Shown here piece by piece: positions 7,867 through 61,925 of a DNA stretch of 64,000 bases. The position numbers and the translations under genes are program-made. Position 1 is the first letter of the stretch, and each line of letters begins with the position of its first letter. The notes beneath the pieces are model-generated. The model did no database searches, was not told where the DNA came from, and saw only the letters and a list, made by a program, of their open reading frames with translations. The stretch is from a virus: the IMG/VR virus record IMGVR_UViG_3300025718_000002, positions 1-64,000 of that record. One strand, given 5' to 3'.

Positions 7867-8257
7867 AAAGGAAAAGCTAGGAATAAGTACAGCAATTAAC
7901 TTATTCCTAGTAGACCTTTATCGTGATGGCAGATATTTCACACTAGGGATCGTAGGAAACAAAGAAGCAATTAAAATACAGTTACAGTTACAATGCCAAG
8001 ACGTTACCCATGTAAGAACTATTCCTAAGAGAAACAAAGACAAGTACACAGGAGATAGGGAGTGGCTAGGATTTAGAATAGTGTACTGCAAATATACTTG
8101 TGACATAACAAGAAAAACACAAATAAATAATATGAAAGAGGTTGATAAAGATGGTTACTACGTTAAAGCAGTACATGACAGTCCTAGCATTGATCCCAAC
8201 AATGTTACTGGTGTACATATGTTGTCTGATATTGGATCTACTGAGGTAGAAAATTAG
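7847..8257 (+). CDS. Hypothetical protein
   Basis: ORF track. It overlaps the dut 3' end by 20 nt. Confidence 0.4.
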   Translation: MVVQVSKKEKLGISTAINLFLVDLYRDGRYFTLGIVGNKEAIKIQLQLQCQDVTHVRTIPKRNKDKYTGDREWLGFRIVYCKYTCDITRKTQINNMKEVDKDGYYVKAVHDSPSIDPNNVTGVHMLSDIGSTEVEN

Positions 8258-8856
8258 TGGATAAGCTAAGTATGTTTTTAAAAGACATTTCTGAGCAATT
8301 AATTAATGAAGAATCAATAATTGACCAGTATTGTAGATATGAAGGAAGAGAGCCAATAGATGCAATTATAGAGAAAGAGGAAAGAACTGAGATTGTAAAA
8401 GTTATAGAATTCCTTAATAAAAATATGACTGAAAGTGAGAGAATGATCCTGTATTTGTACACTGTAGAAGGTAAGAATCAGCAAGAGATTGCAGATATAG
8501 TAGGTCTTTCACAGAAAACAATTAGTAAAAAACTAGACTCTTTCCCTGTGAAGTTCTCTAAGCTATTATTTACAGATGCCTCTTTTGATAACTTCAACAT
8601 AGAAAACTCTATTAGTGTTCACGAAAAAGAATTTGTAGCACATAAGCCAACTCCAATGGGTATGCCATTTGAATATTTTAGGTCAGTTAATAATGGTGGT
8701 AGATGGGGTAAGAAGTATGGTAAAAAGATATGGGTAAGTAAAGAGAAGTGTTTACTCCCAGAGTATTTTAAAAGTAGTTTTAAAGATAGTAAAACAGTGT
8801 GTACATTAGATACCTCAGATAGAATGTGTAGCAAATGTACACGAAAATCTTCTTAG
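8257..8856 (+). CDS. Sigma-factor-like transcription regulator (region-4 HTH) with Cys-rich C-terminus
   Basis: ERMILYLYTVEGKNQQEIADIVGLSQKTISKKL resembles a sigma-70 region 4 / ECF-type HTH. A C-terminal C..C cluster is present. Confidence 0.55.
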   Translation: MDKLSMFLKDISEQLINEESIIDQYCRYEGREPIDAIIEKEERTEIVKVIEFLNKNMTESERMILYLYTVEGKNQQEIADIVGLSQKTISKKLDSFPVKFSKLLFTDASFDNFNIENSISVHEKEFVAHKPTPMGMPFEYFRSVNNGGRWGKKYGKKIWVSKEKCLLPEYFKSSFKDSKTVCTLDTSDRMCSKCTRKSS

Positions 8857-8929: not shown

Positions 8930-9304
8930 TTATTTATGATCAACTACTTCATGAGGGTCTATATTCTTTTTAAAGCACTTAGGGCAATCTTCTGGAATAG
9001 TTACATTGTCTACCACTGCCCACTTATAACTACAACTAGGACACTCATAGAAACTGTCAATTAGTTTTCCAGTAGGTGTTAACCCTAGTCCCATATCCAT
9101 AACTATTCTTATCATATCCTCTGCGCTAAACCAATCGTGCATTGCAATCCAAGTATCTTTTTCATCTACGTTATTAATATGGGTGATAATGTAAAGCTTG
9201 TACTTATTTGCCTTAACATCCTTCACAACAACAGTCTTTGAGTTATCACCTAGGGTAACATGAAATACTTCCTCATTAATCTTTAGCTTTAACAGTTTTC
9301 TCAT
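8930..9304 (-). CDS. Hypothetical protein with Cys cluster (CPSCSYKWAV...CPKC)
   Basis: ORF track. The Cys cluster is zinc-ribbon-like. Confidence 0.5.
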   Translation of the reverse strand: MRKLLKLKINEEVFHVTLGDNSKTVVVKDVKANKYKLYIITHINNVDEKDTWIAMHDWFSAEDMIRIVMDMGLGLTPTGKLIDSFYECPSCSYKWAVVDNVTIPEDCPKCFKKNIDPHEVVDHK

Positions 9305-9305
9305 A

Positions 9306-9560
9306 CTATTTACACATCCTTAAATATGTTTCTGACATTTCGCTTATTACATTTCCTAGTGCTGAAATAAATAATACTTGCCTATTATGTTTTGTTCTAT
9401 CTATAGCCCCAGACTTTAAAAGATGTTGCACTTGATACAGAAATTTATCAGCTATTTCTTTAGCCTCATCCTCTGCACATTCTAAAGTTACTTGTTCGTA
9501 CATTCTGGGCTGTCTAGGTTGCCCAGCTATCAAATTCCTTTTCATATAATTTACCTCCAT
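9306..9560 (-). CDS. Hypothetical protein
   Basis: ORF track. It is tightly packed with its neighbours. Confidence 0.45.
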   Translation of the reverse strand: MEVNYMKRNLIAGQPRQPRMYEQVTLECAEDEAKEIADKFLYQVQHLLKSGAIDRTKHNRQVLFISALGNVISEMSETYLRMCK

Positions 9561-9688
9561 TTTCCTGTAAATGGGATAACATCGCGCTCACACCTACGCG
9601 CCCATTGTTTATAACTCCACTTTTGGTATATCGCGATAATTACAACTAATAAAGCAACTAGAAACACTTTATCCATTTTAACTACTCC

Positions 9689-9901
9689 TTATTCCACAAT
9701 TTCAAATACAATATCTTTTCTCACTGGTGTATCGCTTTCATAGTAACCATCTTTACTAGGGTAACAAGTGTACCATTCCATTGATACTGTATCTTGATTG
9801 AAATATCTGCCTTTATCATTTCCCTCTACTTGCCTGTAGACGTTTTTGCAAAATCCACTTTCTGAATGGTGAAATTCAACTTTAATAACCTTATTTTCCA
9901 T
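9689..9901 (-). CDS. Hypothetical protein
   Basis: ORF track. Confidence 0.4.
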   Translation of the reverse strand: MENKVIKVEFHHSESGFCKNVYRQVEGNDKGRYFNQDTVSMEWYTCYPSKDGYYESDTPVRKDIVFEIVE

Positions 9902-9904
9902 AGT

Positions 9905-10735
9905 TTACTCCTTTTCAAAACCTTTTTCTATGCAATATTTCAACATGTTATCCATTACAATAACGCTAGTATCTGGTATTGTAGATTCAAAAATGGATTC
10001 CATAATATTAATAGTGCCATAACTGGCGAGTAGTTTGTGCATTTTGTGTATTGCCTCATCAGTCATTTTAACTGAAAAGCGTTCCTCAATTTTCTTACTT
10101 ATCTGGGTAAAGTGATTAGAACTAAATCCACCCCAACAATTATCCCTCATCCACCCCTTATACACACCTAACAGGTAAGCAATACCTTCGCCATTAAGAA
10201 AGTCATTCTTCTTTGAAGATGTAATTTCCATTCCTTTGTAAGCCCACGTCTGCCAGTCATTAGGGCGAGCATATTCAAGGTATCCAAAATATTCATTGAG
10301 TCTGCTATTTACTTTTTCAGTGATTTCACCAATTTTATCTCTATAAATGCCTTTTAACTGGTCTTTTGTATATTTTTCTACTGTAATAATATTCACGATA
10401 GGAGGAGCAGGGGAAATAGGGGGAGCAATAACTTTGGCTACTTTATTTTTATGAGTAAATTTCACACATGATTTGAATTTTACGTTAGTATCAAGCCCCT
10501 CTAAGGACTCTTTATTAAGTATTTTTCTAAGTAGGGGAATAGCTTTTTTTGCTGTCTCTACTCCTACCATTCTTTCATTAACGTCACTTTTCCACCCTGC
10601 GATAGTGGCAGAAGATACATGAAAAGTATCTTGTAGTTCTTTAGCATCCATAATACCATTTTTAACAATATCTCTAAGTAATATAGCTACTTCAAGTTTT
10701 AATTCATCATTGGTCATAACTTCGATATCTTGCAT
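9905..10735 (-). CDS. Hypothetical protein (possible N-terminal DNA-binding region)
   Basis: ORF track. No recognisable catalytic motif. Confidence 0.5.
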   Translation of the reverse strand: MQDIEVMTNDELKLEVAILLRDIVKNGIMDAKELQDTFHVSSATIAGWKSDVNERMVGVETAKKAIPLLRKILNKESLEGLDTNVKFKSCVKFTHKNKVAKVIAPPISPAPPIVNIITVEKYTKDQLKGIYRDKIGEITEKVNSRLNEYFGYLEYARPNDWQTWAYKGMEITSSKKNDFLNGEGIAYLLGVYKGWMRDNCWGGFSSNHFTQISKKIEERFSVKMTDEAIHKMHKLLASYGTINIMESIFESTIPDTSVIVMDNMLKYCIEKGFEKE

Positions 10736-10906
10736 GTTTAAAACTCCTTTTAAATATTAATAACATAAATAAAACAACAAATAGATATTAAAGCAAGTAT
10801 AAAAGATAATGCTAGAACATAATCACATGTAATAATATTGTAAAAATTATCAGACATTAAAGTCACCCCTTTACATATCAAAAAGAGGGGACAAGCCCCT
10901 CAATTA

Positions 10907-11983
10907 TTATTCTGCTTCTTGAAACAAGATCTCAGGAGTGGTATTTTCTTCTTCTTTCTTATCATCAGGTTTTGCAAGTTGAGAATGAATATGACGTGTA
11001 TCTTCCTGTGGTGCTGGGACTCTATCAGCTACTTCCTCTAAAGTCTCCACTACTTCATCATGGTTGAAATGACCATACATAATTCTATCGCGCTTAATCC
11101 ACTTAGTATAGTTATTCATACCACCACCACAATTATCTTTGTATCCAGCAGGATATTTCTTAAAGAATTCAGTGATACGTTTAGTGAATTCAGCAATCTC
11201 TAGGCGTTGACCATTAACAGCATGGAGGATCATGGGGAAGTGGGACTTCTTAAAGTATGACGCAAATTGTTTGTCAGTTAATGTCAGCTTGTAGAGGTAG
11301 TCCAATTTATCATGAAATTCTTGCACTAACACTGGATTAATGCCATCTTTTCTAAGGCTGGCAGTATATTTAGCAATTTCTACAGCAGATAGATTTTCAC
11401 AAACACCTTCTAAAACCATCATGCTATGAACTACTAATTCTTCGTCACCTTTATTGTTTCTAGCAGTGTCAGACAAGCCAATTTTAGCAAATAGGGGATG
11501 TTTGCAAATACTTTGAATTTCATCTAACACATCAGTGCCAGCGTCAACCCTTGTTAAGTCCCATTTCTTCAACGCAACACCATGATTAAGTTTTTTAAAC
11601 ATGATATTACGCTCATCGTCAGTCATATCTTTGTAATAGACTAGGCTGAATTTGAAAGTGTCAATGACTTTCTTAGCATCTGCGTCAAGTTCGCTATACA
11701 GCTTGCCTTCATATGTAGTAAATTCATCATTAGTAAAGGCAAGGACAGTGGACGTTCTTTGTTTTCCGTCCAGCACTTCATAAACATCATTTACAAATCT
11801 GGCAACTAGTTGTGGGACATGGTATCCATTAATAATGCTGTGAATAAGATCCTGTTTATTATCCTCAGTCCATACAAAACCTCTTTGAAAACCAACGTGG
11901 TAGCACAAAACACCATCATTAATCATTTTACAAATTTGTACAGTAGTTTTAGCATCAGTATGTTTTTTAGCAGTTAATAACAT
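10907..11983 (-). CDS. DUF262 / ParB-like nuclease domain protein
   Basis: HVGFQRGFVWTEDNKQ followed by VLDGKQRTST matches the DUF262 signatures (QRxxVW ... DGQQR). An acidic C-terminal tail is present. Confidence 0.7.
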   Translation of the reverse strand: MLLTAKKHTDAKTTVQICKMINDGVLCYHVGFQRGFVWTEDNKQDLIHSIINGYHVPQLVARFVNDVYEVLDGKQRTSTVLAFTNDEFTTYEGKLYSELDADAKKVIDTFKFSLVYYKDMTDDERNIMFKKLNHGVALKKWDLTRVDAGTDVLDEIQSICKHPLFAKIGLSDTARNNKGDEELVVHSMMVLEGVCENLSAVEIAKYTASLRKDGINPVLVQEFHDKLDYLYKLTLTDKQFASYFKKSHFPMILHAVNGQRLEIAEFTKRITEFFKKYPAGYKDNCGGGMNNYTKWIKRDRIMYGHFNHDEVVETLEEVADRVPAPQEDTRHIHSQLAKPDDKKEEENTTPEILFQEAE

Positions 11984-12082
11984 TTATAAACATCTCCTAT
12001 TCTTTTTTTGAGTATCTAATTCAATACCTTATTATATCATGCAAAAAGGTGAATAGCAAGGGGATTTCTCCCCTTTTACTAG

Positions 12083-13084
12083 TTATTTTGCAATTATTTT
12101 TCTAGTTTGCTCTTTAAGCAAGTTAAGATCATCCTCAATCTCAGTAAGATTGACTTGCAAAAGTTCTTTATAGTCTTTTACAAGTGCCATTTGATCGTTG
12201 AATTTAAGCACTGCACCATTAATTTTAGACTCAGTAAATTGATTGTCTTTAAGTAACAAGCTGAATTCTGTGATAAGTTCTTTAATAGTATTCTTTGAGG
12301 ATAGTATTTTTGCGTCTCCTCCAAAGAGTTTAATAACGTCTGCTACGTTAGTGGATATATCATCTACAAGATGTTTTTCTATCATATTAGATTGATGTTG
12401 ATTCTCTATTTCATCCCTAGGAATCAAAGGAATTGTTTCAATTTCACAATTAGAGTTAATTTCTTGTAACATACCAGCAAACTTTTTAAGTAGTTCACAG
12501 TTTTTAAAGGGGATAAACTCCACACCACCTGATTTTCTCATAGAGATACCAGACATGTCACGAATGAAGTTCTTTGTCATTCTGCGAATAGCGTCACCAG
12601 TGTAAAATTCGCTGTATCTGTTATATTTTGTGACAACATCTTTCATCATATCACTGTAATTATAGTCAATTACCTTAATGTCTACAAGGTCAGTGTTACG
12701 ATCATATCTAGCAGTAGCAATATGCCTCTTATCTGCGTTAATAGTGGCATTCATGTCATTTTTAAGGATCTCTTGATCTAATTCCCTGCTAGAAGGTCTT
12801 TCAAAGGTGCGAATGATCTCGTCTTTATCTGAAATAATCTCATCAACCTTAACCTGCGATACTTTCTTAGAAGGAATTACCTCTCTTGTAGCAGTACGAA
12901 AAGCATCAGCCTTACAGATCTTAGCAGGGAGGTAGCTAGAGGGAATACCATGCTTAATTGCTAGGGTATAAAGGTCAGTGTCTTTAATTTCTACTGACTC
13001 AGGAATAGTGTACCATGAAACATAACCCCAAACTTTGATATTAGGAACATTTCCAGCTACAGCAACAAAATCATTACTAGTCAT
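12083..13084 (-). CDS. Hypothetical protein (333 aa) in operon with vWA/MoxR genes
   Basis: ORF track. Same strand and close spacing. Confidence 0.5.
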   Translation of the reverse strand: MTSNDFVAVAGNVPNIKVWGYVSWYTIPESVEIKDTDLYTLAIKHGIPSSYLPAKICKADAFRTATREVIPSKKVSQVKVDEIISDKDEIIRTFERPSSRELDQEILKNDMNATINADKRHIATARYDRNTDLVDIKVIDYNYSDMMKDVVTKYNRYSEFYTGDAIRRMTKNFIRDMSGISMRKSGGVEFIPFKNCELLKKFAGMLQEINSNCEIETIPLIPRDEIENQHQSNMIEKHLVDDISTNVADVIKLFGGDAKILSSKNTIKELITEFSLLLKDNQFTESKINGAVLKFNDQMALVKDYKELLQVNLTEIEDDLNLLKEQTRKIIAK

Positions 13085-13342
13085 TCTTAAAACCTCTTTT
13101 ACATTTATTTAAGGGAGTATTTAGCCCTTACCTAATGCCTAGCCCTAGGTTAGATCTTAGGTAAAGGCGAAAAGCCTCTACAGTTTACAGTAGTTTAATT
13201 CTTCGTATTGCCTCTCTTAAAATATGTATTTTCTCAATCGCAATGTGTCTATCACTATCTGGAAGGTCAAGGTTTACAGCAACACTAGCTAATTCTTTTA
13301 ATATTGCTTCTAATTTCTCAATATCAGTCATGATTTCACCTC

Positions 13343-14896
13343 CTAGATATTACTATACATTACTTCTAGGTTTTTGTCACTAATTTCTAGTATCTGGTCA
13401 CACCACGAAAGATCACCATATCTTTTAGCTTGTTCAGCATTTAGCCCAATAACCATCATATACACTGAGCAATCTTTTTGACTCTTAATAACTAGTATTT
13501 CATCTAACTGTGTACCACTAATGCGACACTCACCATCAGTGATAATTACTACATCAGCTTTATTCCAAGCAGACTCACCAATCTTTTTAAAAGCCCACCT
13601 AAGAGGCTGTTCAAAGTTCGTCCCTCCACCATAGGAGAATTCAGCTAATTCTACAAGTTGCATAGGAGTCATTTTCTTTCCCTTTTCTGCTTCACCTGTA
13701 TGTTGTGCATCTCTACCAGAGAAGATGTTATAAGCAAAACCTCTTTGCTGTTTCTTTGCTGTATCAGCTAGGGATAGTGCTATAGCCTTAGCCCATACAC
13801 TTCTAGTATATGCACCTTCTCTATCATCCATACTACCAGAGGAGTCAATAAGGCAAATAATATCACCTTGTCCAGCAGAATCACGATTATTAAGATCATA
13901 CTGCAATAATTTCTTCTCAACAAAGTCCTTATAAAAGACCTTTTTGAGAATGGGATTTTTAAGCTTAACAAGTTCTTGCGTTAGTAGGTGATTAATGTCA
14001 TTACCCTGAGTAATATCATGTATTTCGCACTTATTCTCAGAGAGTTTAGCCTTTTTACTATTACGAGATATTGCCTTTAACCTGCCTACTAATTTAGCCA
14101 CTTCTTTCAAGTTACGACTATTCTTTACAGCTTTTAGAAGTGCTGACTTGTTTTCAAATGATTCTCTTTTTAATTCACCATTGCCAATGCCAAAACCATT
14201 AAATACAGCATCATTTTCCTCTGCTTGCTCTAATGCCTCAGTCACAGCATTGTTAACAGCCCTTCTCATTGCACCATTAGCCCTATCTAAACTATCTTGT
14301 AAGGCTTGTGCCTCTTCTGGGGTGATATCATATTCATATTCAATGTTTTCTTCTCCTGTTTCATCACTAGGAGAATCATCACCAGTACCATCGCTAGGGC
14401 TTACAGTAATTTCGTCAGGTATATCACCACCACCACCACCAGATTGCCCACCTGTTTTATCTGGATCAAAGGTCACTTTAACTTTGCGCTTTTCCATAGC
14501 TTCATTAGTCTTTTTAATAGCGTCTTGGATATCTGGGTTATTTTCCATAACTGATACTATTTCCTGTGTAACAGTTTGGCATCCTAATGCGCTCCCAAAC
14601 TCATCCAATTGAGTGTACTCTCTAAGCTGTTTATATGTCTGAGATTCCAACATCTTTTCAATTTGCTGTTTGTTGTATTTATGAGTCAAAGGAACTTCTG
14701 TAGCTAGTTCAGCTTTTTCTGGTTTATACAGTGAGTAGAAGATATCCCTTGAAAGATCTTCAAAGGTTGATAGGGTTTTGACTCCCTTATCAATGGTCTT
14801 TTTTAACGTAGGCGATTGTTCAATTAGATCATTAGCAATCATTGTATCAAACATATCATGCTTTATAACTTGCATATGAATAACCCTCCTTTGCAA
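13343..14896 (-). CDS. von Willebrand factor A (vWA) domain protein
   Basis: A MIDAS motif DIICLIDSSGSMDD lies in the C-terminal domain. A Gly/acidic linker GGQSGGGGGDIPDE is present. The gene sits next to the MoxR ATPase gene. Confidence 0.7.
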   Translation of the reverse strand: MQRRVIHMQVIKHDMFDTMIANDLIEQSPTLKKTIDKGVKTLSTFEDLSRDIFYSLYKPEKAELATEVPLTHKYNKQQIEKMLESQTYKQLREYTQLDEFGSALGCQTVTQEIVSVMENNPDIQDAIKKTNEAMEKRKVKVTFDPDKTGGQSGGGGGDIPDEITVSPSDGTGDDSPSDETGEENIEYEYDITPEEAQALQDSLDRANGAMRRAVNNAVTEALEQAEENDAVFNGFGIGNGELKRESFENKSALLKAVKNSRNLKEVAKLVGRLKAISRNSKKAKLSENKCEIHDITQGNDINHLLTQELVKLKNPILKKVFYKDFVEKKLLQYDLNNRDSAGQGDIICLIDSSGSMDDREGAYTRSVWAKAIALSLADTAKKQQRGFAYNIFSGRDAQHTGEAEKGKKMTPMQLVELAEFSYGGGTNFEQPLRWAFKKIGESAWNKADVVIITDGECRISGTQLDEILVIKSQKDCSVYMMVIGLNAEQAKRYGDLSWCDQILEISDKNLEVMYSNI

Positions 14897-14980
14897 GATT
14901 CATCAGCAAAAACTGATAAGTTGCTACACTTATCAGTCCTGCCTTTAGTTGTTTTTTAGCGTACAATATTGAATTTTCCA

Positions 14981-16162
14981 TTATAAACCTAATAATACAG
15001 AGACAATTTCTTCGTTCATTTTCTTAATTTCCAGTAAACGTGCCTCTGCTTTACTAGTACCTACGCCATTGGCTTGCATAATAGCATTTTTAAGTTGATT
15101 CTGCGCTAATTTAAGCTTGTGATTTGCCTCAGTAGCTTTAGCAGATCTAGTTGCTCCTTCTGGCTCTACCTTAACAATGTTTGCAAGTTCAGCGCAAGCA
15201 TCATATATTTCATTTGCCTTAACTGTGAGTGGATTTCCTAGAGATAAGACAATTTTACGAATAGGTTTAATTTGCTCAGGCTCATCCCACAAAAGGTGAC
15301 AGAAAATCTCAATATCATCTTCATTAACCTCTTGTCTACCTTCTAGCCAAGCATTAGCCTTTAGGTATCGCAAGCTATTACGGAATTTTCTATCTGAGAT
15401 AGAATACCCATCAACTTTTAATTTCTTCCAGAGCGTTACCAATGTCCCACGAATAAAGGAGGCAGGTACGGACACTAGCTGTGCCTCAATCTGTGCTTGT
15501 TTTAATTGACCTAGGGTAATAGATAGGGCAGGCTTAATACTAGCTAATTCCAACATACTAATAAAGTTCTTTTCTTCTGCTATGTAGTCTACCATGTAGC
15601 GTAATTCAAACCTGTCATACAATGGTGCTAGTTCGCCAGTTACGCCACCCTCTGGAAGTTCATTGGAACATCCTACAGCCCCCATTAATGGAATCTCAAT
15701 AGGTGAGCCACCATCATTAAAATAAACACGTTCATTTAGGATAGAAAGGTGAGAATTTAAAAGTGCCATGTTTGATTTAAAAATCTCGTCAAGAACTGCA
15801 AAGTGAGCAGTAGGTAATTTCCCTGCAACATTACGAATATAGTTATCATTCTCTAATTCTTTCAAAGAGAGAGAACCAAAAACATCTTCCATAGTTGACA
15901 TACGATTGTATAGTCTATGAAATAGTTGACTTCCTTCAATCTGTGAAGCTAATGCCTCTACAAGTGCTGTTTTAGCAGATCCCTTGCCACCTAAGAGAAG
16001 TACGTTACCTCTTGCAATGGCTGTTACTAACAAACCTCTTACCTCATCTTGACGTTCAAAGAAGGTAGCATTAAGAGTCTTTTCGATTGCTTGGAAAGAG
16101 GTGGAATTAACTGGTTCTCCTTTTATTTCCTGATAGGTAGGTTGAATAAATTTAGTTGTCAT
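14981..16162 (-). CDS. MoxR-type AAA+ ATPase
   Basis: Walker A is NVLLLGGKGSAKTALVEALA. Walker B is HFAVLDEIFK. The ERQDEVRGLLVTAIA pre-Walker helix is typical of MoxR/RavA. Confidence 0.8.
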   Translation of the reverse strand: MTTKFIQPTYQEIKGEPVNSTSFQAIEKTLNATFFERQDEVRGLLVTAIARGNVLLLGGKGSAKTALVEALASQIEGSQLFHRLYNRMSTMEDVFGSLSLKELENDNYIRNVAGKLPTAHFAVLDEIFKSNMALLNSHLSILNERVYFNDGGSPIEIPLMGAVGCSNELPEGGVTGELAPLYDRFELRYMVDYIAEEKNFISMLELASIKPALSITLGQLKQAQIEAQLVSVPASFIRGTLVTLWKKLKVDGYSISDRKFRNSLRYLKANAWLEGRQEVNEDDIEIFCHLLWDEPEQIKPIRKIVLSLGNPLTVKANEIYDACAELANIVKVEPEGATRSAKATEANHKLKLAQNQLKNAIMQANGVGTSKAEARLLEIKKMNEEIVSVLLGL

Positions 16163-16203
16163 GTATTTAAAACACCTTTCTATGGGTAAATTTTATGCCC
16201 ATA

Positions 16204-16248
16204 CAGTAGCATTTAATCACTATTTTATAATTTAAATGCTACTGTAGA
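16204..16248. promoter_or_regulatory. Perfect 14-bp inverted repeat (ACAGTAGCATTTAA ... TTAAATGCTACTGT)
   Basis: Seen directly. It lies between a small Zn-finger ORF and the moxR start. It is either an intergenic terminator or an operator. Confidence 0.5.
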
Positions 16249-16269
16249 AGCATAAAGCCTCTACTTACT

Positions 16270-16428
16270 ATGCTGGAATATGCTTGGAGCAGTGCCATTT
16301 GTCAGTATCAATTTCTTTACCTTTGTTTGTAAAGTCACCACACACTACACATACTTGGAAGTCTTTAAACTCACACTTGAAACATAGCGATCCAGTTTTA
16401 CATTTATCACACTTATTTTCTTTCATTT
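16270..16428 (-). CDS. Small Cys-rich (CxxC x3) protein, about 52 aa
   Basis: The reverse strand reads MKENKCDKCKTGSLCFKCEFKDFQVCVVCGDF...WHCSKH. It is below the ORF-track cut-off. Confidence 0.35.
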
Positions 16429-16611
16429 CTTTTTACCTAATTCAAAACTATCAGTAGTTAGTTTACATACAATTTCAGTGTGAGTAGAATATATATCTTC
16501 TGCTAATAATTTAATTCTGTAATTGATTGCTTCTTTCTCAGTATCAAATATTCTAATGGGTGATTTTGAACTATGATGTGGATTGACCATAAATTTAATA
16601 ATTCCTTTCAC
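16423..16611 (-). CDS. Hypothetical protein
   Basis: ORF track. Confidence 0.4.
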   Translation of the reverse strand: MKGIIKFMVNPHHSSKSPIRIFDTEKEAINYRIKLLAEDIYSTHTEIVCKLTTDSFELGKKK

Positions 16612-16796
16612 TATTTACCCTCCCAAAATACATTATAATCTTTACCAGTGATATAAAGGTATACCCTGCAATACGCAAGACATACCTTTTCAATTACATA
16701 TTCCTTATTATGATTAGCTTCAAAACCAGCGAAGAATAACCATTCTGCTACTTTAAAAAACATGACGTTCAGGGATAAGTGGAGCGTCACCTTCAA
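16611..16796 (-). CDS. Hypothetical protein (start probably internal to the listed ORF)
   Basis: ORF track. It overlaps the upstream gene by 44 nt. Confidence 0.35.
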   Translation of the reverse strand: MKVTLHLSLNVMFFKVAEWLFFAGFEANHNKEYVIEKVCLAYCRVYLYITGKDYNVFWEGK

Positions 16797-17367
16797 GTTG
16801 TATTCTATACTGTATATCTGTGACTAGCTTACCACTTGAAATTATGTACTTTTGAGCCTCTAGATTGGCATGGTGATCATCTTTACCTGTGACCCTTGTG
16901 TAAAATTCCTCTTTGCCATTCTTAGTAATGTATAGCTTGTAACTAGGGAATACATTCCATTTTTCTGCTGTCAGAAAGCAATTAAACATATCATGGTTGA
17001 AAAGTTCCTTGTATCCAGAATCAATAAGGTAATTAAGTAAATTACTAGGAGAATCATTTAACATATAGCCATGATCGTCACGTTCTTTTTCGCGCCATTT
17101 CCAAAAGTTAGACAGCATATTTGCAACAAACTTAAAACTATCAGCGTTAGAACTAGACATATCAGCCTTTAAACCATACCAATCAATATCAGTGGTAGTT
17201 TTTTGAAACGTTACATCAAATCTGTCACGACCAAAGGAAATATATCCTAGTTCATCATCATCATTAGAGTAGCCACTAAGTTGAAACACTCTAATTAGTA
17301 ATTGATCGTATCCATGAGAGTTAGCCACAGGGAACACATGAAAGTAACCTTTTGTTTTCTTTGCCAT
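16753..17367 (-). CDS. Hypothetical protein (204 aa)
   Basis: ORF track. Confidence 0.5.
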   Translation of the reverse strand: MAKKTKGYFHVFPVANSHGYDQLLIRVFQLSGYSNDDDELGYISFGRDRFDVTFQKTTTDIDWYGLKADMSSSNADSFKFVANMLSNFWKWREKERDDHGYMLNDSPSNLLNYLIDSGYKELFNHDMFNCFLTAEKWNVFPSYKLYITKNGKEEFYTRVTGKDDHHANLEAQKYIISSGKLVTDIQYRIQLEGDAPLIPERHVF

Positions 17368-17393
17368 TGTAAAACCTCTTTTTTATTTAATAC

Positions 17394-17434
17394 AGGGTAT
17401 AAATTAGTTGATTTTAACTACTACTTAGAGAGAG
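17394..17434. repeat. 41-bp element, copy A (second copy at 21383-21423, 39/41 identical, same orientation)
   Basis: agggtataaattagttgattttaactactacttagagagag compared with agggtataaaatagttgattttaactactacttagagaggg. Confidence 0.8.
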
Positions 17435-17476
17435 TCTTTTTTAAATCTTTAGCTTTACCAACAAACAAGAAAATAA

Positions 17477-17734
17477 TCATACCTCTGTATATCCTAGGCT
17501 AGTGAAATGCTTGCGATAATCATTAATGGCAATAGATGTTGATTTTGTACTAAAAGATCCATAATGAACTGAAAAGATACTTTCTTTGTCATTTACTACA
17601 CAAATTGTAGTGTCGTAATAGTAAAAATTACGGATCGTACCAAACAAAGTAACTACCTTGTGATTGCCTAGCTTAATTGGAGTTGTTGATTGTACTAGTT
17701 TTTTGACTGTTTCCAGCATGACTGTACACCTCAT
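17477..17734 (-). CDS. Hypothetical protein
   Basis: ORF track. Confidence 0.45.
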   Translation of the reverse strand: MRCTVMLETVKKLVQSTTPIKLGNHKVVTLFGTIRNFYYYDTTICVVNDKESIFSVHYGSFSTKSTSIAINDYRKHFTSLGYTEV

Positions 17735-17739
17735 TAATT

Positions 17740-19025
17740 AATCTTAGAACACAAATAGCGTCCTAGGTATATGCAATAAGCCACTTGACGCTTATTAACT
17801 ATACCCAAGACGCTAATCTTGGGAAAATATGTTAACTACCATTTAAGATAGCTGTTTTTCATATGGCTTTTACTAGGTACTTACCTAGCTGTTACCCTAC
17901 TCACCACTTCTACGACACATCTATTTTAATCATGCTTCACAGCATTCCCTATTATTGTAGGTTTATTTTTACACTTGCTTTTGGACTGAGCCTCTGCTCT
18001 TTTCAATTCTTCTGGAGTGCTTATTATGCACTAAGGAAGATTCCTATTTGCAAGCAACAACTACTAAGGGTTTTGTGCCTGTGTATGAGGGTATAACCTG
18101 CTGTATGTACTTTTCAAAGACCATTGGCTAGGGTACGCTTTGACTTGCTACTGATAGCTTGCACTGTGTAGAGAATCAGCCCATACATTCCAGTGTACTA
18201 TCAAGAGTAGTAGTATCAGAGGGTACGCTTCATTGCCATTTGCGAATATGTTATTCAGAATTCGCATAAGAGAAGGGAAAGTTTGTGTGTACTACTTAGT
18301 ACACTGTGATTGTATCACTTGGAGTAGTTCGCTGTCAAGTCCTAACTTTCAATGTAGCGTATACTAGCAAGAAACTAGTTGCTTACCAGACACTGAATGA
18401 TTGACCATGACTTATACTACCATGATACAGTTCAATTTGTCAACAACTATTTAAAAGGTCTTTTTACAGTGCAAGTTGTTAATTAAAATTGGAACTAACA
18501 CTATAATACCATAAGGGGTATATATAGTCAATACATTATTTGCATTTAAAAGGCATTTTAAGAATTAATTATTTAAACCGTTGAATAATTCATGCTTATA
18601 TAGAAGGAAGATATCATCAAAACATCCATGAGTGTGGGCTGTGGCTGGGCTAGAGGTGGGGCAAAGTGCAATTGTTAATACTTTGTGGATAAGTTGTTTT
18701 ACGACTAGCTAGTCAATTCAACTAGGTTGAGAGATCTCAGGATATGAGTATTACAGGGTATGTGCAGATATAAAAATCAACCTTGCCACCTTTACGGCTG
18801 TTTAAAAGGACTTTTAAAAACACTCAAATGGTAAACTATAGGCTATTATGGTAAACTAAAAGGCTTACATGGGAGGAGTTACCAGTAAGGCTCAAAATCG
18901 TGGAAAAACAATTATTAAACAGTATCAATTAAGCTATATAGTAGGTAACACTACTAACTAAGCTAGTATCAAGAACTAGATCATTTCATCCTAGGGTATA
19001 CCTAGGATAGAGTAAAGGAGAACTT
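17740..19025. other. 1.3-kb ORF-free, GC-richer, hairpin-dense region upstream of terS. Candidate large structured ncRNA and/or packaging-site or origin region.
   Basis: There is no ORF of 60 aa or more on either strand apart from one low-complexity artefact. It contains many local palindromes (for example GTGTACTACTTAGTACAC, TGCGAAT..ATTCGCA), G-rich islands and AAAAGGTCTTTT motif copies. Confidence 0.4.
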
Positions 19026-19466
19026 ATGACAGTAAATAAGAAGCTAACAATTAAGCAGGAGAAGTTTGTCAATGAATATGTTGATACAGGGAATGGTAGA
19101 CAGTCAGTAATAGAGGCTGGTTATAATGTTGCCAATGGGAATGTTGCAGGGGCAATTGCATGTGAAAACTTAACAAAACCAAATGTAGCACTTGCGATTG
19201 TGACCAAAAAGGCACAAATAGCAGAGTTATTGGAACAAGAAAGTATGTCACTACTCACTGAGTTGTTAAGTATTTCAAAAAATAGCCCATCAGACGCAGT
19301 GAGGCTAAAAGCATGTCAAGACCTATTAGACAGAGCAGGATATAACGCTAAGAAGGATTTGACAATATCTGGTGGAGATACAGCAATTACTATAGAGACT
19401 AGGCATACAAGTGAACTAGCTAAACGTGCTAGAGAGATGATGGTACAGACAGCAATCGACATATAA
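19026..19466 (+). CDS. terS: Terminase small subunit
   Basis: LTIKQEKFVNEYVDTGNGRQSVIEAGY matches the conserved N-terminal HTH of small terminase proteins. It lies directly upstream of terL. Confidence 0.8.
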   Translation: MTVNKKLTIKQEKFVNEYVDTGNGRQSVIEAGYNVANGNVAGAIACENLTKPNVALAIVTKKAQIAELLEQESMSLLTELLSISKNSPSDAVRLKACQDLLDRAGYNAKKDLTISGGDTAITIETRHTSELAKRAREMMVQTAIDI

Positions 19467-19481
19467 CGACATTATATTATG

Positions 19482-19538
19482 TTCCGATAATAGAAATGTA
19501 TCGGTCGTAATGTCCGATAACCATAACATTATCGGACA
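19482..19538. repeat. Cluster of GTCCGATAA 9-mers in alternating orientation (3 full and 1 partial copy) just after terS
   Basis: The copies are ttccgataa, atcggtcg, gtccgataa and ttatcggac. This is a candidate pac or terminase-binding site. Confidence 0.5.
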
Positions 19539-19589
19539 TACCCTGATTCAATGTAGCGATAACAGTAACATTATCACTAGTTAGAACTA

Positions 19590-19656
19590 TAAAGACCTTT
19601 TAAAGTGTATTGTGGCACGTGCTATGCGCTATATATGATTGTTTAAAAGGTCTTTA
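19590..19656. promoter_or_regulatory. 15-bp perfect inverted repeat TAAAGACCTTTTAAA / TTTAAAAGGTCTTTA separated by 37 nt
   Basis: Seen directly. It shares the AAAAGGTCTTTT core found in at least four other intergenic sites. Confidence 0.5.
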
Positions 19657-20003
19657 ATAGAAGGAAACATATTCATATAATGAAGCAATCAGCACAGCAG
19701 GGGGTGGCATGGGTGGGGCTTGCAATGCGTGATTGTGTGCATGTCGCGTACCCGTATATATAAAACTCTTAAATTTATAACACCTCCCTAAGACTCTACT
19801 TACAATTATTCCCAGTTATAACCTTTTCTATTCACAGAAAAATATTTTCTAAAATTTTAAGAACCTCTGGGCTACTGCCTAGGGGTTAAAAGGAGTGACC
19901 AACTATTTCAATAGCCAGTTTATCAACTAGCACACATATCAATGACCTAGCCTTTGCATATACAGAAGGTAAGAAATCAATAGTAAGTTTTCGTAAGCTA
20001 TTC

Positions 20004-21359
20004 ATGCCAGCACAGGGGGAACTAGCACCTCCTAAATTCCACTATGAATGGAATGATATCCTAATTAACTCTAAGTCTCACTTCTGTGTAGAAGCATTTC
20101 GTGAGTCTGGAAAATCCCAGCTAGTAATACGTGGACATACCATCTATAGACTAGTATACCCTAGTATAGATTATGACTATATCCTACTTATCTTAGCTAA
20201 CCAACGTACAGCTAGTAAGAAACTAAAAGAGATTGCAGATGAATACTGTTCAGATCCCATCCTGAGTGCTAACCTAGTGCGAGTAAAGGAACAATCTGAG
20301 AAAGCATTTTGTGCAGAGGTATTAGATGTACATGGTAACATTGTAGAGGTAAGAATTGAGGCTTATGGAAAGGGGTCTGCGATCAGGGGCTTGTCTTACA
20401 GAAATTCGCGTCCTAAGCTTGTGGTAATGGACGATTGTCAGGACAGTGAGTCAGCACAGTCTGAGACTACCTGTGACAAGGATTGGGAATGGTTCCAATC
20501 TGATGTAATGTTCCTAGGACAGAATACACGTATCTTTATGATCGCAAATAACCTAGGTGAGCGTTGTCTAATAGAACGCACCATAGCCAATGCTAAGTCC
20601 TTAAAGTTTGAGTGGGCTAGGATACCCATCCTTGGAGATGAAGGTAAATCTAATTGGGAAGAAAAGTACAGCCCTGCTTTTATTGAGGAAGAAAGAGAAG
20701 CATATGCAACAATGGGATCTATAGATGTATGGTTTAGAGAGCGCATGTGTATCGCAATATCCCCTGAAAATCAACGCTTTAAGAAAGAGATGCTTACTAA
20801 TAGATATGAGAAAGTTGCAAAAGACCTTTCTGTATATATAACTGTAGACCTTGCAATATCACAAAAACTAACAGCAGATTATACAGCTATATGTGTAGTG
20901 GGCGTAAATAGTGAGAACCATTGGTTTATCTTAGATATAATCTATGGACGCTTTGATGTTACCAGAACTATAGATGAAATCTTTAAAGCTGTAGTAAAGT
21001 ACAAGCCCATAAAAGTTGGGATAGAAAAGGTTGGGTATCAAGCTTCATTAGAAGAATACCTAAAGAAAGAAATGCCACGCAAGAATATATTCTTTAGCAT
21101 AGATGGGTTATCTCATGGAGGTAATAAGAAAGAGTATAGAATTGAAGCACTACAACCTAGATTCTCAGCAGGAACAGTGTGGCTACCAGAAAAGGCTGAA
21201 TGGCTAACTGAATTCACTAGTGAAATACTAGCATTCCCTAGAGGAAACCACGATGATTTAATTGATGCACTAGCGTATATGGAAAAGATTGCTTATGCTC
21301 CTTCTGGTGGGTGGGGTAAGGTAGCTACTAAAGATCTACCAATGGCAGGTGAAATGTAA
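20004..21359 (+). CDS. terL: Terminase large subunit (true start probably upstream at about 19905)
   Basis: VEAFRESGKSQ is a Walker A-like segment. The C-terminal nuclease region carries acidic residues. The frame is open from 19899. A strong RBS AAAGGAG at 19889-19895 has no ATG after it, which implies a non-canonical start. Confidence 0.75.
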   Translation: MPAQGELAPPKFHYEWNDILINSKSHFCVEAFRESGKSQLVIRGHTIYRLVYPSIDYDYILLILANQRTASKKLKEIADEYCSDPILSANLVRVKEQSEKAFCAEVLDVHGNIVEVRIEAYGKGSAIRGLSYRNSRPKLVVMDDCQDSESAQSETTCDKDWEWFQSDVMFLGQNTRIFMIANNLGERCLIERTIANAKSLKFEWARIPILGDEGKSNWEEKYSPAFIEEEREAYATMGSIDVWFRERMCIAISPENQRFKKEMLTNRYEKVAKDLSVYITVDLAISQKLTADYTAICVVGVNSENHWFILDIIYGRFDVTRTIDEIFKAVVKYKPIKVGIEKVGYQASLEEYLKKEMPRKNIFFSIDGLSHGGNKKEYRIEALQPRFSAGTVWLPEKAEWLTEFTSEILAFPRGNHDDLIDALAYMEKIAYAPSGGWGKVATKDLPMAGEM

Positions 21360-21382
21360 CTAAAAAATAAATATTTCAAAAT

Positions 21383-21423
21383 AGGGTATAAAATAGTTGA
21401 TTTTAACTACTACTTAGAGAGGG
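21383..21423. repeat. 41-bp element, copy B (see 17394-17434)
   Basis: Direct repeat immediately downstream of terL and upstream of the portal operon. Confidence 0.8.
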
Positions 21424-47124: not shown

Positions 47125-47504
47125 AAAGAAGTTTTATATTATTATTACTTGTATTGTCATTGGGATTGTTTGCTGGAACGTGTTCAGCCCATCAAATAAC
47201 AGATCAGGAATTGACGAGGTTAGAACAGATCTTCAATCAATTGGAGCAGAACAATCTACAGCAGGACAAGCAATTGGAGAGAGCAAGTTTATTGTTAACG
47301 AAATCAGAGACACAAATAAATCAGTTAAATACGAAATTGACAGTAGCAGAGCAATCAATAATTCAAGCGCAGACCTCATTACAGAAGGCAAATCAATCCT
47401 TAGACAAGTACGAACAAGAGACTAACAAAGAAATTCGTAAATTGAAACTAGAGAGAGATTTGGTAATTATTGGGGTTATTGCTATGGTTGTGTTGAAAAA
47501 GTAA
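47118..47504 (+). CDS. Spanin-like lysis protein (N-terminal signal/lipobox-like, coiled-coil, C-terminal TM)
   Basis: MVKRSFILLLLVLSLGLFAGTCSA is followed by a long heptad coiled coil. A C-terminal TM LVIIGVIAMVVL is present. The overlapping alternative-frame ORF 47060..47425 is less likely. Confidence 0.4.
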   Translation: MVKRSFILLLLVLSLGLFAGTCSAHQITDQELTRLEQIFNQLEQNNLQQDKQLERASLLLTKSETQINQLNTKLTVAEQSIIQAQTSLQKANQSLDKYEQETNKEIRKLKLERDLVIIGVIAMVVLKK

Positions 47505-47533
47505 AATATTTATTCATTTTATGAATATTTTAC

Positions 47534-48571: not shown

Positions 48572-48584
48572 ACTAATAGTATAG

Positions 48585-48623
48585 GCTAGGATGCCCATTA
48601 TAATCAGTGGTGGGCATCCTAGC
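48585..48623 (+). terminator. Rho-independent terminator (13-bp stem GCTAGGATGCCCA/TGGGCATCCTAGC)
   Basis: Seen directly, followed by T-rich sequence. Confidence 0.65.
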
Positions 48624-49372
48624 TTCGTGTCGGTATTTATTCAGATTTTGAATATTATTAAAAATAAATATAGACAAAAAGTTATCCACATGCTATACTA
48701 TAAGAAGTGAAAGAAAATGACCCATAACCGTTGGTCGCGGTTACAGGTCTGTACTAATGTGTTATTAGACAACACACTAGCGGAATAACTAAATTCATTA
48801 TATCACACTATGCGTTAATAAGCAAGTAATATAATGTGTTTACGTTATGATTCTGTGTTGGAAGAATATGTTAGGACAGACTTAGGTTTGTCCTATTTTT
48901 GTTACCCTAAAACTGAATACTGAGTGGGTGAGACTAAAAAGATCATCCAGCACTGTACATAATGGTGCTTAAACAAATACCAAATGGTTCGTCGCCATTA
49001 CAGAAAATGTACCAACGACAAAGCGTCCTTTGTCAGCATCTTATTTTTCATTTTTAAGATGTGTTACTCGTTAATTGGTGAAGTCTGTCCAAGACTAAAA
49101 CCAACTGGAATATCCCGTACTCCGCAGGTGCGAAAGCAGGGGAGGTCAGCGAATGTCAGTGATGGCACAGATATATTGGTCTGCAATGAGGTCTGTTGAG
49201 CTGGTAAAAATCTATACAGAATAAACTTTAAACTGTTGTATAGACACTCCTATTTTGTGAAAATGGGGTAGGGGGAAGTCTGCCAGTCACCATTACCTGT
49301 TGTATTTGTAGATCGTTTAATCAGTTCTATTCTTGTTTTAGTTTTCCTAGCTGTTGAGCGAAGCGAAACTTC
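48624..49372. other. About 750-nt ORF-poor region with a promoter-like site and multiple hairpins (candidate ncRNA locus next to the tRNAs)
   Basis: Only one 71-aa ORF with poor context is present. Hairpins include AACCG..CGGTT, a GACAAAG-cgtc-CTTTGTC terminator-like stem plus T-run at about 49016-49045, and TTCTTGC-caca-GCAAGAA. Confidence 0.35.
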
Positions 49373-49420
49373 TTGCCACAGCAAGAACACTCCCAGAAGA
49401 ACAGAAGAAAGGAGGGGACA

Positions 49421-49729
49421 ATGAGACAGTGTGAAACGTGTAGCATCTTTAGTAAGAAACTAAACAGATGCAGGATTCCTCCCCAGCGCAGGACTAAGGA
49501 TAAAAAGGGGAAGTGTAATCAATACAAAAGGTACAGTGATGAATTGCTAGTGAAATACAAGGGACAGAACATGCTTAGTAAGAAAATTGAGAAAGCATCT
49601 AAGTGTATCCTGTGTCCATTTAGGAGAGATGATGGGTTTTGCCAATTACATCAAAGATTTGCCTATGTAGTTAACATTAGTTGTTTAGGTACAAAAGACC
49701 TTTTAACATTGCAAAACATAACACTATGA
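49421..49729 (+). CDS. Cys-rich (zinc-finger-like) small protein. The start is reassigned to ATG after RBS AAAGGAGG.
   Basis: MRQCETCS...CILCPF..C..H. The ORF-track start at 49373 lacks an RBS. Confidence 0.5.
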   Translation: MRQCETCSIFSKKLNRCRIPPQRRTKDKKGKCNQYKRYSDELLVKYKGQNMLSKKIEKASKCILCPFRRDDGFCQLHQRFAYVVNISCLGTKDLLTLQNITL

Positions 49730-49985: not shown

Positions 49986-50018
49986 AACCACTTACCAATT
50001 ACTGGTAGGTGGTTTTTC
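49986..50018. terminator. Bidirectional terminator (12-bp stem, loop ATTAC, T-run)
   Basis: accacttacca / tggtaggtggt then tttt. It sits at the convergence of the plus-strand gene and the minus-strand xre gene. Confidence 0.6.
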
Positions 50019-50325
50019 CGTTTATCCATATATCTATTAATTTACCTAAAATTATTGGTGTTACTCCATTTAGTTTTGCTTTTGCAATTATACAACTATA
50101 TGGATCATTAGGCTCTATTGGGGTATCAAGCAGGTCATTAACTGATACCCCAAATATTTCAGCCAGTTTAGTAATATGGTCTACGTTTAATCTTTTACCA
50201 TCTCGACCAGTTTCTAAATTATAATAATATTGGGGAGAAATACCTAACAGTAAAGCTATATTTCTCCCAGATCGCAATCTTTTATCAGCATGTTTTGTTC
50301 GTATATTCCTAATGTTATTTGTCAT
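49999..50325 (-). CDS. XRE-family HTH transcriptional regulator
   Basis: LRSGRNIALLLGISPQYYYNLETG...ITKLAEIFGVSVNDLL. Confidence 0.65.
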   Translation of the reverse strand: MTNNIRNIRTKHADKRLRSGRNIALLLGISPQYYYNLETGRDGKRLNVDHITKLAEIFGVSVNDLLDTPIEPNDPYSCIIAKAKLNGVTPIILGKLIDIWINGKTTYQ

Positions 50326-57530: not shown

Positions 57531-57878
57531 TTAGGACTTGTGACTGTATATTTGTTCATAACGCCACTTAATATAAGCTTCTTCAACGTACTTAGCTGAC
57601 GAAGGACTTTCTACAAATTGTTTAATATTGTCTGGTAAATGGCTCAGAATACCTTCTGGTTCTATTAGGTATTCTGTAGTGACTTGAAACAACATACATA
57701 GTCTATCTAGTACGGCTTTTTGTGGAAGATGTATTTGTAAATCACTTTCCAGACGTGCATACGTTGGCTGTGAAATTCCTAATATGTCAGCAACTTCTTT
57801 TTGAGTTAACTTCTTTTTAAAGCGCATATACTTAATTTTTTCCCCTAAAGTCATATTAAAAACTCCTTTTACAATCAT
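57531..57878 (-). CDS. XRE-family HTH repressor
   Basis: LGEKIKYMRFKKKLTQKEVADILGISQPTYARLESD. It is divergent from the downstream early genes. Confidence 0.7.
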   Translation of the reverse strand: MIVKGVFNMTLGEKIKYMRFKKKLTQKEVADILGISQPTYARLESDLQIHLPQKAVLDRLCMLFQVTTEYLIEPEGILSHLPDNIKQFVESPSSAKYVEEAYIKWRYEQIYSHKS

Positions 57879-57884
57879 ATATTC

Positions 57885-58040
57885 AGATTAAGAATATTAT
57901 AGCCAATTTCTAGTTTTATTATACACCATTACCGCACTGAAAGTCAACTATTAATTACTAGATATTAGGATATAGTATAAATTAAATTTGTCTTATTTTG
58001 TCGAAATACATATTTATTATTCAGAATAAGAATATGATAT
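57885..58040. promoter_or_regulatory. Two copies of a 16-bp putative operator TTCAGA(T/A)TAAGAATAT flanking the divergent promoter region
   Basis: Seen at about 57887-57902 and about 58023-58038. Confidence 0.4.
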
Positions 58041-58047
58041 TATTATC

Positions 58048-61844: not shown

Positions 61845-61925
61845 GTGTCAGTTGTACAAACTATATCATTTATAATGTTTATGGGGTTAATGCTAAAGAT
61901 TTTATTCACTTTATGAATAAATTAC

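Follow-up and report, generated by a model that had tools for sequence, protein, structure and literature searches.

The left end of phage T7 reportedly carries three tandem promoters for the host polymerase (A1, A2 and A3), the RNase III site R0.3 and gene 0.3. Bacillus RNase III cuts the early mRNAs of SP82 at hairpins between cistrons. Packaging sites of the SPP1 type (pac; pacL-pacC-pacR) lie just upstream of and inside the terS gene. The host-takeover module of SPO1 comprises small early genes equipped with strong sigma-A promoters and ribosome-binding sites; gp42 belongs to this early, strongly expressed module and its expression slows the growth of B. subtilis (PMC6873191). The subject of the present analysis is a gene-free gap of 1291 nt (positions 17735–19025) in the first 64,000 nt (the window) of the IMG/VR virus record IMGVR_UViG_3300025718_000002, which is part of the genome (>70 kb) of an uncultivated phage. 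The genes flanking the gap diverge, with a minus-strand gene (17477–17734) on the left and terS (19026–19466, plus strand) on the right. On balance, the gap is probably a divergent transcription-control region between an early leftward operon (8930–17734) and a rightward operon of packaging and structural genes, of which terS is the first. It most likely adds another case to a known class of feature, a phage hub of early promoters and operators with a long folded leader.

Comparison with known early regions

Functionally, the T7 early region appears to be the closest model for the gap, with the SPO1/SP82 module as its Gram-positive counterpart, the resemblance being one of architecture and not of homology. 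As in T7, three strong promoters of host type are predicted in tandem, all facing one way and spaced by ~100 nt; a long double-stranded hairpin, here predicted and a putative cleavage site, separates the promoters from the first early gene, which is of an anti-host kind, here a gp42 homologue of presumed early timing; and the gene-free DNA is near 1 kb overall, that of T7 also holding end-processing signals. The two regions differ in that the leader extends over 570 nt from the innermost promoter, three times the ~175 nt of T7, in that the promoters are of the Gram-positive type with a TGn-extended −10 box and in that terS is divergent from the promoters, whereas the T7 terminase genes are found at the far end of the genome; they share no sequence homology. 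The likeness to the SPO1/SP82 module lies in the gp42 homologue as the first leftward gene. This is the one homologous gene in common, the remainder of the leftward block (8930–17734) carrying MoxR-type ATPase, VWA, DUF6744 and GmrSD_N genes, and the SPO1 module is located within a 13-kb terminal redundancy, whereas none is visible here.

Predicted leftward promoters and operon

Three tandem promoters of the sigma-A/sigma-70 type, all leftward and ~90–105 nt apart, are predicted in the gap. P1 (18338–18309, minus strand) has TTGACA, an 18-nt spacer and TGaTACAAT, with 11 of 12 matches and a predicted start at ~18302; P2 (18443–18414, minus strand) has TTGACA, an 18-nt spacer and TGgTAGTAT (10/12, predicted start ~18407); and P3 (18531–18503, minus strand) has TTGACT, a 17-nt spacer and TGgTATTAT (10/12, predicted start ~18496). 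The −10 box is of the TGn-extended form in all three. If 10 or more of 12 matches and a TG-extended −10 box are required of a site, three fall within the 223 nt of 18309–18531 compared with an expectation of 0.037, and no more than one was seen in any of 1000 shuffles. The two strands of the 64-kb window together contain only ten such sites, against 2.6 ± 1.6 in shuffles. Five of the seven outside the gap are intergenic and face the next gene or tRNAs (12059 on the minus strand, 47534, 48671, 58048 and 61926), indicating that the consensus is predictive in this genome. Between P1–P3 and the first leftward gene the scan identified no stronger promoter-like site and lists a single 9/12 site (17825–17798), which falls within the large hairpin described below.

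The first leftward gene, the start of which is placed at 17719 in the public gene calls for an identical contig, with an AGGTG box 7 nt upstream, is by sequence similarity homologous to SPO1 gp42. PHROGs gave a match to phrog_18662 (E = 1e-9), and tblastn aligns it with SPO1 gp42 and the SP82 and CampHawk homologues (35% identity, E = 4e-6). The leftward operon appears to be of the host-takeover type and presumably early in timing.

Probable structured leader

The distance from the predicted starts to the first leftward start codon is 570–780 nt, and this stretch is devoid of coding capacity. The left 570–780 nt of the gap are very probably transcribed from the three strong promoters as a non-coding, structured sequence, and a structured RNA probably exists here as the 5′ leader of the leftward operon. 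The part between P1 and the large hairpin described below (17816–18302, minus strand) is predicted to be an untranslated, hairpin-rich leader. The first-pass annotation, which was made from the letters of the sequence, had described the region as hairpin-dense, and the counts bear this out: the gap contains eight perfect hairpins with a stem of at least 7 bp (seven of them distinct) compared with 1.8 expected from the window-wide rate, a number reached by no other 1291-nt frame of the window in steps of 200 nt. Folding of 17735–18302 (568 nt) on the minus strand gives z = −3.57, with none of 100 shuffles as stable. The plus strand gives a nearly equal value (z = −3.48), suggesting that much of the fold signal stems from inverted repeats in the DNA. 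The right 494 nt of the gap reach a z of only −1.7.

At its end the leader is predicted to form a 24-bp two-tier hairpin (17755–17815, minus strand; ΔG = −35.3 kcal/mol, z = −6.27, none of 200 shuffles as stable), built of 16 + 8 bp with a 2 × 2 internal loop and followed by UUUGUGUU; ~20 nt separate its end from GAGGTG, the ribosome-binding site of the first leftward gene. The minus-strand form has 24 pairs, three of them G-U (ΔG = −34.3), whereas on the plus strand, where the three G-U pairs become A-C mismatches, 20 pairs remain (ΔG = −23.2). This strand-specific pairing points to an RNA-level structure of the leftward transcript. In a terminator scan of our own, run on both strands of 17400–20100, this hairpin was the sole strong terminator-like structure (ΔG = −33.5, tail TTTGTGTT); a stock terminator scan with stricter rules did not call it. 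It is a candidate for a processing or stabilizing site or for a leaky terminator or attenuator.

Two further hairpins belong to the left half. A 7-bp stem on the perfect-stem list (CCCAAGA/TCTTGGG, 17804–17823, minus strand) has as its 3′ arm the 5′ arm of the large hairpin, and it could offer an alternative, antiterminator-like pairing, although it is far weaker than the large hairpin. An irregular long hairpin of ~100 nt (18130–18230) has as its ends an exact 11-nt direct repeat, AGGGTACGCTT (18130–18140 and 18220–18230), and folds with ΔG = −37.4 (z = −3.0) on the plus strand compared with −27.8 (z = −1.1) on the minus strand.

Operator-like repeats

The repeated motif singled out in the first-pass annotation, TTTAAAAGNNMTTTT, indeed occurs three times in the window, all in the gap, where 0.05 copies are expected. 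The corresponding 18-bp motif, here termed the O motif, has the form TTTAAAAG-N2-CTTTTAAA (pattern AAAAGG..CTTTT); it starts at 18450, 18545 and 18801 and in this form is found nowhere else in the window. A looser form, TTAAAAGGNNTTT, occurs nine times in 64 kb compared with 0.17 expected, and five of the nine flank terS. O1 (TTTAAAAGGTCTTTTTAC, 18450–18467) abuts the −35 box of P2, and O2 (TTTAAAAGGCATTTTAAG, 18545–18562) lies 13 nt upstream of the −35 box of P3. O3 (TTTAAAAGGACTTTTAAA, 18801–18818) is a perfect 8 + 2 + 8 palindrome of 18 bp located just upstream of two rightward TGgTAAACT boxes. In the gap between terS and terL, O4 and O5 form a 15-bp inverted pair (19588–19660; ΔG = −25.9, z = −5.1), with O5 overlapping the −35 box of a rightward promoter-like site (19654–19681), and a looser copy at 49694 overlaps another promoter-like site. 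As the sequence is read here, all good copies adjoin a −10-like box. This placement is that of a candidate operator for a dimeric regulator, candidates for which are two HTH_3 proteins and a Sigma70_r4 protein, the latter encoded at 8257–8856; genes for DNA-binding proteins of the phage also lie at 49999–50325 and 57531–57878.

Another operator-like palindrome, TTATTCAYTTTATGAATAW, adjoins the −35 box of two other strong promoters, at 47502–47533 before promoter 47534, which precedes the tRNAs, and at 61894–61925 before promoter 61926. A related sequence is found near 58016–58047, before promoter 58048 and beside a divergent HTH_3 gene (57531–57878).

Right third of the gap and the terS side

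An AT-rich stretch of 180 nt (18450–18630; 22–27% GC in 60-nt frames) covers P3, O1 and O2. The G-rich islands that the region was said to contain are present in the form of a plus-strand island at 18629–18662, in which Tandem Repeats Finder identifies ~2.9 repeats of 11 nt, about three units, with consensus TGAGGTGGGC, ending in GGTGGGGC. The latter sequence occurs four times in 64 kb compared with 0.43 expected, and one of the copies lies in the terS-terL gap. Further to the right are a perfect 12-bp palindrome (GACTAGCTAGTC, 18703–18714) and 2.2 copies of a 20-nt direct repeat (18828–18872, plus strand), the first two copies of which each hold ATGGTAAACTA, an extended −10-like TGgTAAACT without a −35 box. 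These repeats are candidates for factor-dependent rightward promoters or for binding sites before terS. A 21-bp palindrome, ATCCTAGG-GTATA-CCTAGGAT (18988–19008, inverted repeat I14), ends ~5 nt before the ribosome-binding site of terS, and its half-site TCCTAGGTATA is also found in the left hairpin (17761–17771).

A search of the gap for a good rightward promoter of host type yielded none, only the two TGgTAAACT boxes without a −35, as should be the case if the packaging and structural genes depend on a phage factor. The right third may hold late-promoter or packaging signals. The terS product belongs to Pfam Terminase_2 (PF03592) and to phrog_51. The arrangement resembles the SPP1 pac region in that a TerS gene of the Terminase_2 family is adjacent, in that the DNA immediately upstream of terS is non-coding and carries repeats and promoters and in that G-rich repeats are found on both sides of terS; it differs in that the repeats are ~1 kb apart, compared with a span of ~0.27 kb in SPP1, and there is no sequence similarity.

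The terS-terL gap (19467–20003, 537 nt) is also gene-free and structured, with two GATAAC..TTATC hairpins (19505–19580) and a G-rich island ending in GGTGGGGCTT. Tracts of the type GGTGGGGGCTT are found in the terS-terL gap of a relative whose terL is 67% identical (L020). Duplication of one unit on either side of terS was considered and rejected, as the local alignment score was no better than in shuffles and only short motifs are common to the two sides.

Outside the gap, a plus-strand element of 39–44 nt (AGGGTATAAAWTAGTTGATTTTAACTACTACTTAGAGAG, 17394–17432) lies antisense within the leftward block and points into the gap. It may be a promoter or activator site for a phage factor. A second copy of this element, AAATAGGGTATAAAATAGTTGATTTTAACTACTACTTAGAGAGG, is located at ~21380–21423 (39-nt core 21383–21421) between terL and the portal gene, and the element is 100% identical in a satellite-like contig (L008), which has two tandem copies (~465–508 and 553–590) before a replication-initiator-like gene. 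The element is unstructured and lacks a −35 box. The satellite may use it to sense its helper.

Coding capacity and known RNA families

The region had been annotated as free of open reading frames (ORFs), which is borne out in that it has no credible gene. TAA, TAG and TGA are each present in all six frames, so that no single stop-codon reassignment opens a frame; reassignment was rejected, the longest opening by TAG read-through being 140 codons. None of the gap ORFs of at least 15 aa has a good Shine–Dalgarno sequence. Codon-usage log-odds, trained on 23 long genes of the window, ranged from +0.13 to +0.36 per codon in 18 of 19 held-out small genes and were +0.05 in the remaining one, and were negative in seven of the eight gap ORFs of at least 30 aa, including the 77-aa ORF 17863–18096 (−0.24 per codon). 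The eight ORFs gave no match in PHROGs, and public gene callers made no call in the gap on identical contigs. A decayed gene was also rejected: 47 six-frame pieces compared by tblastn with all fetched related loci gave a best E of 0.06. The ORF with gene-like codon usage is a 30-aa frame on the plus strand (18869–18961, MGGVTSKAQNRGKTIIKQYQLSYIVGNTTN; +0.33 per codon), which closely follows the two TGgTAAACT boxes; only a weak AAGG box precedes it, at a distance of 5 nt, and it has no PHROG match.

Two parts of the earlier description need to be qualified. The gap is GC-richer only marginally (36.1% compared with 34.8% for the window, the 69th percentile of frames of the same size), the enrichment being confined to the left part (38.2%). 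The phage is gene-dense in part, with a coding coverage of ~88.5% and further gaps of 0.4–1.2 kb.

The first-pass annotation had proposed a large structured non-coding RNA (ncRNA) of the GOLLD/ROOL class, or else the cos/pac and origin region or a site resembling the phage attachment site (attP). With Rfam 15 at gathering thresholds, the whole window returned only two tRNAs near 47.9 kb, 29 kb from the gap. At E ≤ 10 over 17400–19300 only mir-183, a Hatchet fragment and eiav_FSE came up, each scoring far under its cut-off. The GOLLD, ROOL, OLE, HEARO and raiA models gave no match at gathering or at E ≤ 10, group I and II intron and riboswitch models gave none at E ≤ 10 over the same interval, and there is no tRNA or tmRNA in the gap. 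The Hatchet ribozyme (RF02678) was rejected: the match over the G-rich island scored 17.0 bits (E = 4.5) against a cut-off of 51 bits, covered model positions 31–129 only and was treated as chance because neither the second island nor the relative L020 gave such a match. The gap does not belong to GOLLD, ROOL or any other Rfam family as judged by these models. It resembles GOLLD and ROOL in size (0.5–0.8 kb), in its occurrence in a phage of a Bacillota-type host, in the absence of coding capacity and in its dense predicted structure; in contrast to them, it gives no covariance-model match even at E = 10, is not beside tRNA genes, appears as an operon 5′ leader instead of a free-standing gene and shows no demonstrable conservation.

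The attP proposal finds no support, since no integrase is encoded within 10 kb on either side. An iteron-type replication origin is not supported either: an AT-rich stretch and repeats are present, but no initiator or replication gene is adjacent, and the repeats of the gap are palindromic and not direct iterons. The GC-skew minimum at the gap was discarded as an origin marker, as it follows the switch of coding strand. Of the earlier interpretation, a structured RNA stands as probable in the form of a 5′ leader, and a cos/pac or origin site may lie in the right third of the gap; a known giant ncRNA and attP are not supported. A divergent early-promoter hub had not been considered there.

Relatives and satellites

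The same sequence is present in four assemblies from two sample pairs, with 100% identity over the gap or over the replication end of the window. The identity of all copies means that there is no natural variation to use. Homologous DNA of the gap was not found in phage records (in near or distant mode), in IMG/VR, in JGI contigs, in GTDB genomes or among the fetched loci. Protein-guided scans with terL and terS in IMG/VR and JGI contigs gave nothing useful, a scan of IMG/VR for spaced double O motifs gave four contigs, two of them giant-virus bins and none resembling the gap, a 23-nt shared element had no match in GTDB genomes or IMG/VR, and a search with the 85-aa neighbour protein returned only itself.

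Among the relatives defined by terL, the contig of the closest (79% identity) ends 173 nt before terL. The contig of the 67% relative (L020) contains terS and a 350-nt terS-terL gap with GGTGGGGGC(TT) tracts and ends 263 nt before terS; its non-coding DNA cannot be aligned. The relatives at 64% and 62% have another gene order without such a gap, and in the former terL lies directly beside a divergent ParM-like gene across a 150-bp gap, without terS. None of the relatives carries a protein-coding gene at the position of the gap.

The closest TerS homologues (53–66% identity) are encoded on small elements (L008–L014 and L022–L024) with a gene order of the phage-inducible chromosomal island (PICI) or satellite type, several of them from the samples of the phage itself. 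This order comprises an HTH_36/DnaD_N-like replication-initiator-like gene, iterons (e.g. ATGTAGCTACCACGT), terS, HTH_3, ERCC4, a resolvase and sometimes an integrase. Apart from the contig of the 67% terL relative, all contigs fetched for terS homologues, which cover six of the nine, have the satellite-type order. Poly-C tracts (CCCCCCCCATTCCGCTCACCCCCCC) stand just before terS in two of the satellites (L011 and L013). The regions upstream of terS in the satellites have no motif in common with the gap.

Interpretation and alternatives

If the gap is a divergent control region, host RNA polymerase would fire P1–P3 directly after infection. The folded leader and its terminal hairpin would then set the stability or the read-through of the early mRNA, with the hairpin serving either as an RNase III-type processing or 5′-stabilizing site or as a leaky terminator or attenuator. 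A dimeric DNA-binding protein of the phage at the O sites could switch transcription from early to late, from the leftward promoters to the weak rightward TGgTAAACT promoters, turning early transcription down and aiding the rightward boxes. The AT-rich, repeat-bearing right third may in addition have a late-promoter and possibly a terminase-recognition role.

Several points weigh against this account. The promoters, the start sites and the fate of the hairpin are predictions. The 570 nt from the innermost promoter to the first gene are far more than a promoter needs, and most of the left half is unexplained; for the ~480 nt of structured sequence left over there is a modest chance of something newer. 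The hairpin at 18130–18230 folds better on the plus strand, which a leftward leader does not predict. No relative has an alignable copy, and hence there is no sign of selection on any element. Finally, the element at 17394–17432 points rightward into the gap and, if it is a promoter, the plus strand would be transcribed too.

The length of the leader, far above the simple need of a 5′ untranslated region, is also an argument for regarding the RNA itself as the product, i.e. a stand-alone, highly expressed, structured ncRNA of an undescribed family, of ~555, 660 or 750 nt, running from P1–P3 to the hairpin and its U-rich tail, with the downstream genes reached by read-through. The gap does contain a promoter-to-terminator unit without coding capacity, its fold is unusually stable (568 nt at z = −3.6, and the terminal hairpin, in which the G-U pairs are strand-specific, at −6.3) and the phage seems to hold at least one other small RNA unit with promoter and terminator (48706–48903, z = −4.8). 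However, the plus-strand fold is equally good (z = −3.5), so that inverted repeats in the DNA account for much of the signal, and the U-tract is interrupted (UUUGUGUU), with the stock terminator scan remaining silent. Moreover, genes 12083–17734 have no other strong promoter, and the hairpin consequently cannot be an efficient terminator. With no Rfam family even at E = 10 and no homologue in anything searched that could provide evidence of covariation or conservation, a stand-alone RNA is considered unlikely. The more specific proposal that the 0.55–0.75-kb transcript represents a new family of abundant structured phage ncRNAs that acts in trans in host takeover, for instance by sequestering a host or defence factor in the manner of a decoy or sponge, is rather more doubtful still. 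A DNA-level packaging or replication site, chiefly in the right part of the gap, would fit the position of terS (Terminase_2) at the right edge. The site would be a pac or terminus read by TerS, or an origin, with the O sites or the G-rich repeats as protein-binding arrays and the AT-rich stretch unwinding. The three 11-nt G-rich repeats, one per helical turn, stand beside 180 nt of 22–27% GC, GGTGGGGC recurs in the terS-terL gap, similar GGTGGGGGC(TT) tracts occur in the same gap of the 67% terL relative, and the satellites from the same samples have their own terS homologues, which is typical where the TerS of the helper reads a specific site. On the other hand, the assemblies pass through the gap unbroken, the gap has no motif in common with the regions upstream of terS in the satellites, the replication genes are 35–45 kb away with no adjacent initiator gene, the GC-skew minimum merely tracks the change of coding strand, and the three leftward promoters and the strand-specific RNA hairpin would be left without explanation. 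Such a site is not exclusive of a transcription-control region, but as the account of the gap it appears improbable.

Some of the same observations could be turned towards neutrality. Only the promoters would then be functional and much of the remainder would be a mosaic junction or the remnant of a decayed gene, left by the gain of the leftward accessory block or of the terS cassette. The arrangement is not conserved, the 64% terL relative having a divergent ParM-like gene, a 150-bp gap and no terS; the nearest terS homologues are in satellites and not in phages; non-coding DNA is found on both sides of terS; and the genome tolerates other gaps of 0.4–1.2 kb. A protein-level remnant is nevertheless missing (best tblastn E = 0.06, PHROGs empty), and the hairpin density, the fold z-scores and the motif enrichment are well above chance, which is not expected of decaying DNA. 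A largely neutral gap is accordingly very improbable.

Should the divergent control region be confirmed, it would provide a clean predicted example of the layout of an early-to-late switch in an uncultivated phage of anaerobic Bacillota, in which three host-type promoters stand before a long leader that is processed or attenuated, and copies of a phage-specific operator surround the terminase gene. The practical value would be modest, consisting of candidate strong promoters and an operator for a lineage without a cultured member. The gap would also mark where to seek the packaging site that the same-sample satellites would bypass with their own TerS. One candidate would be struck from the list of possible new giant ncRNAs, unless transcripts show a stable stand-alone RNA.

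Genome setting and other features

The phage encodes a portal protein and a major capsid protein of the SU10 type, and its terminase is at most ~25% identical to those of GenBank phages. Its gene set includes DNA polymerase III alpha, a primase-helicase, a single-stranded DNA-binding protein (SSB), an anaerobic ribonucleotide reductase with its activase, a ParM-like protein and two tRNAs, with the polymerase, SSB and primase-helicase genes located at 54–62 kb. The presence of NrdD and its activase points to an anaerobic host, and the nearest genomic relatives of terS in a terS-profile scan are in Bacillota metagenome-assembled genomes (~40% identity). The large terminase (20004–21359) has 451 aa, compared with 452 aa in the 79% relative and ~470–490 aa in most of the others listed (48–67% identity).

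Short palindromes are scarce throughout the 64 kb, with no CCGG or GCTAGC, two GGCC, ten TCGA and 20 CGCG, a pattern that looks like restriction-site avoidance. In the same window CCTAGG occurs 30 times, ~5 times a rough expectation from base composition, an excess without explanation.

A candidate small RNA gene of ~195 nt (unit 48706–48903, plus strand) is located in a low-coding stretch (48572–49421) and has no Rfam match. It combines a TG-extended promoter (48671–48699), a body with a fold z of −4.84 and a clean intrinsic terminator (AGGACAGAC..GTTTGTCCT followed by TTTTT). The 500 nt that follow it are poorly coding and contain more G-rich islands, such as GGGGTAGGGGG near 49266.

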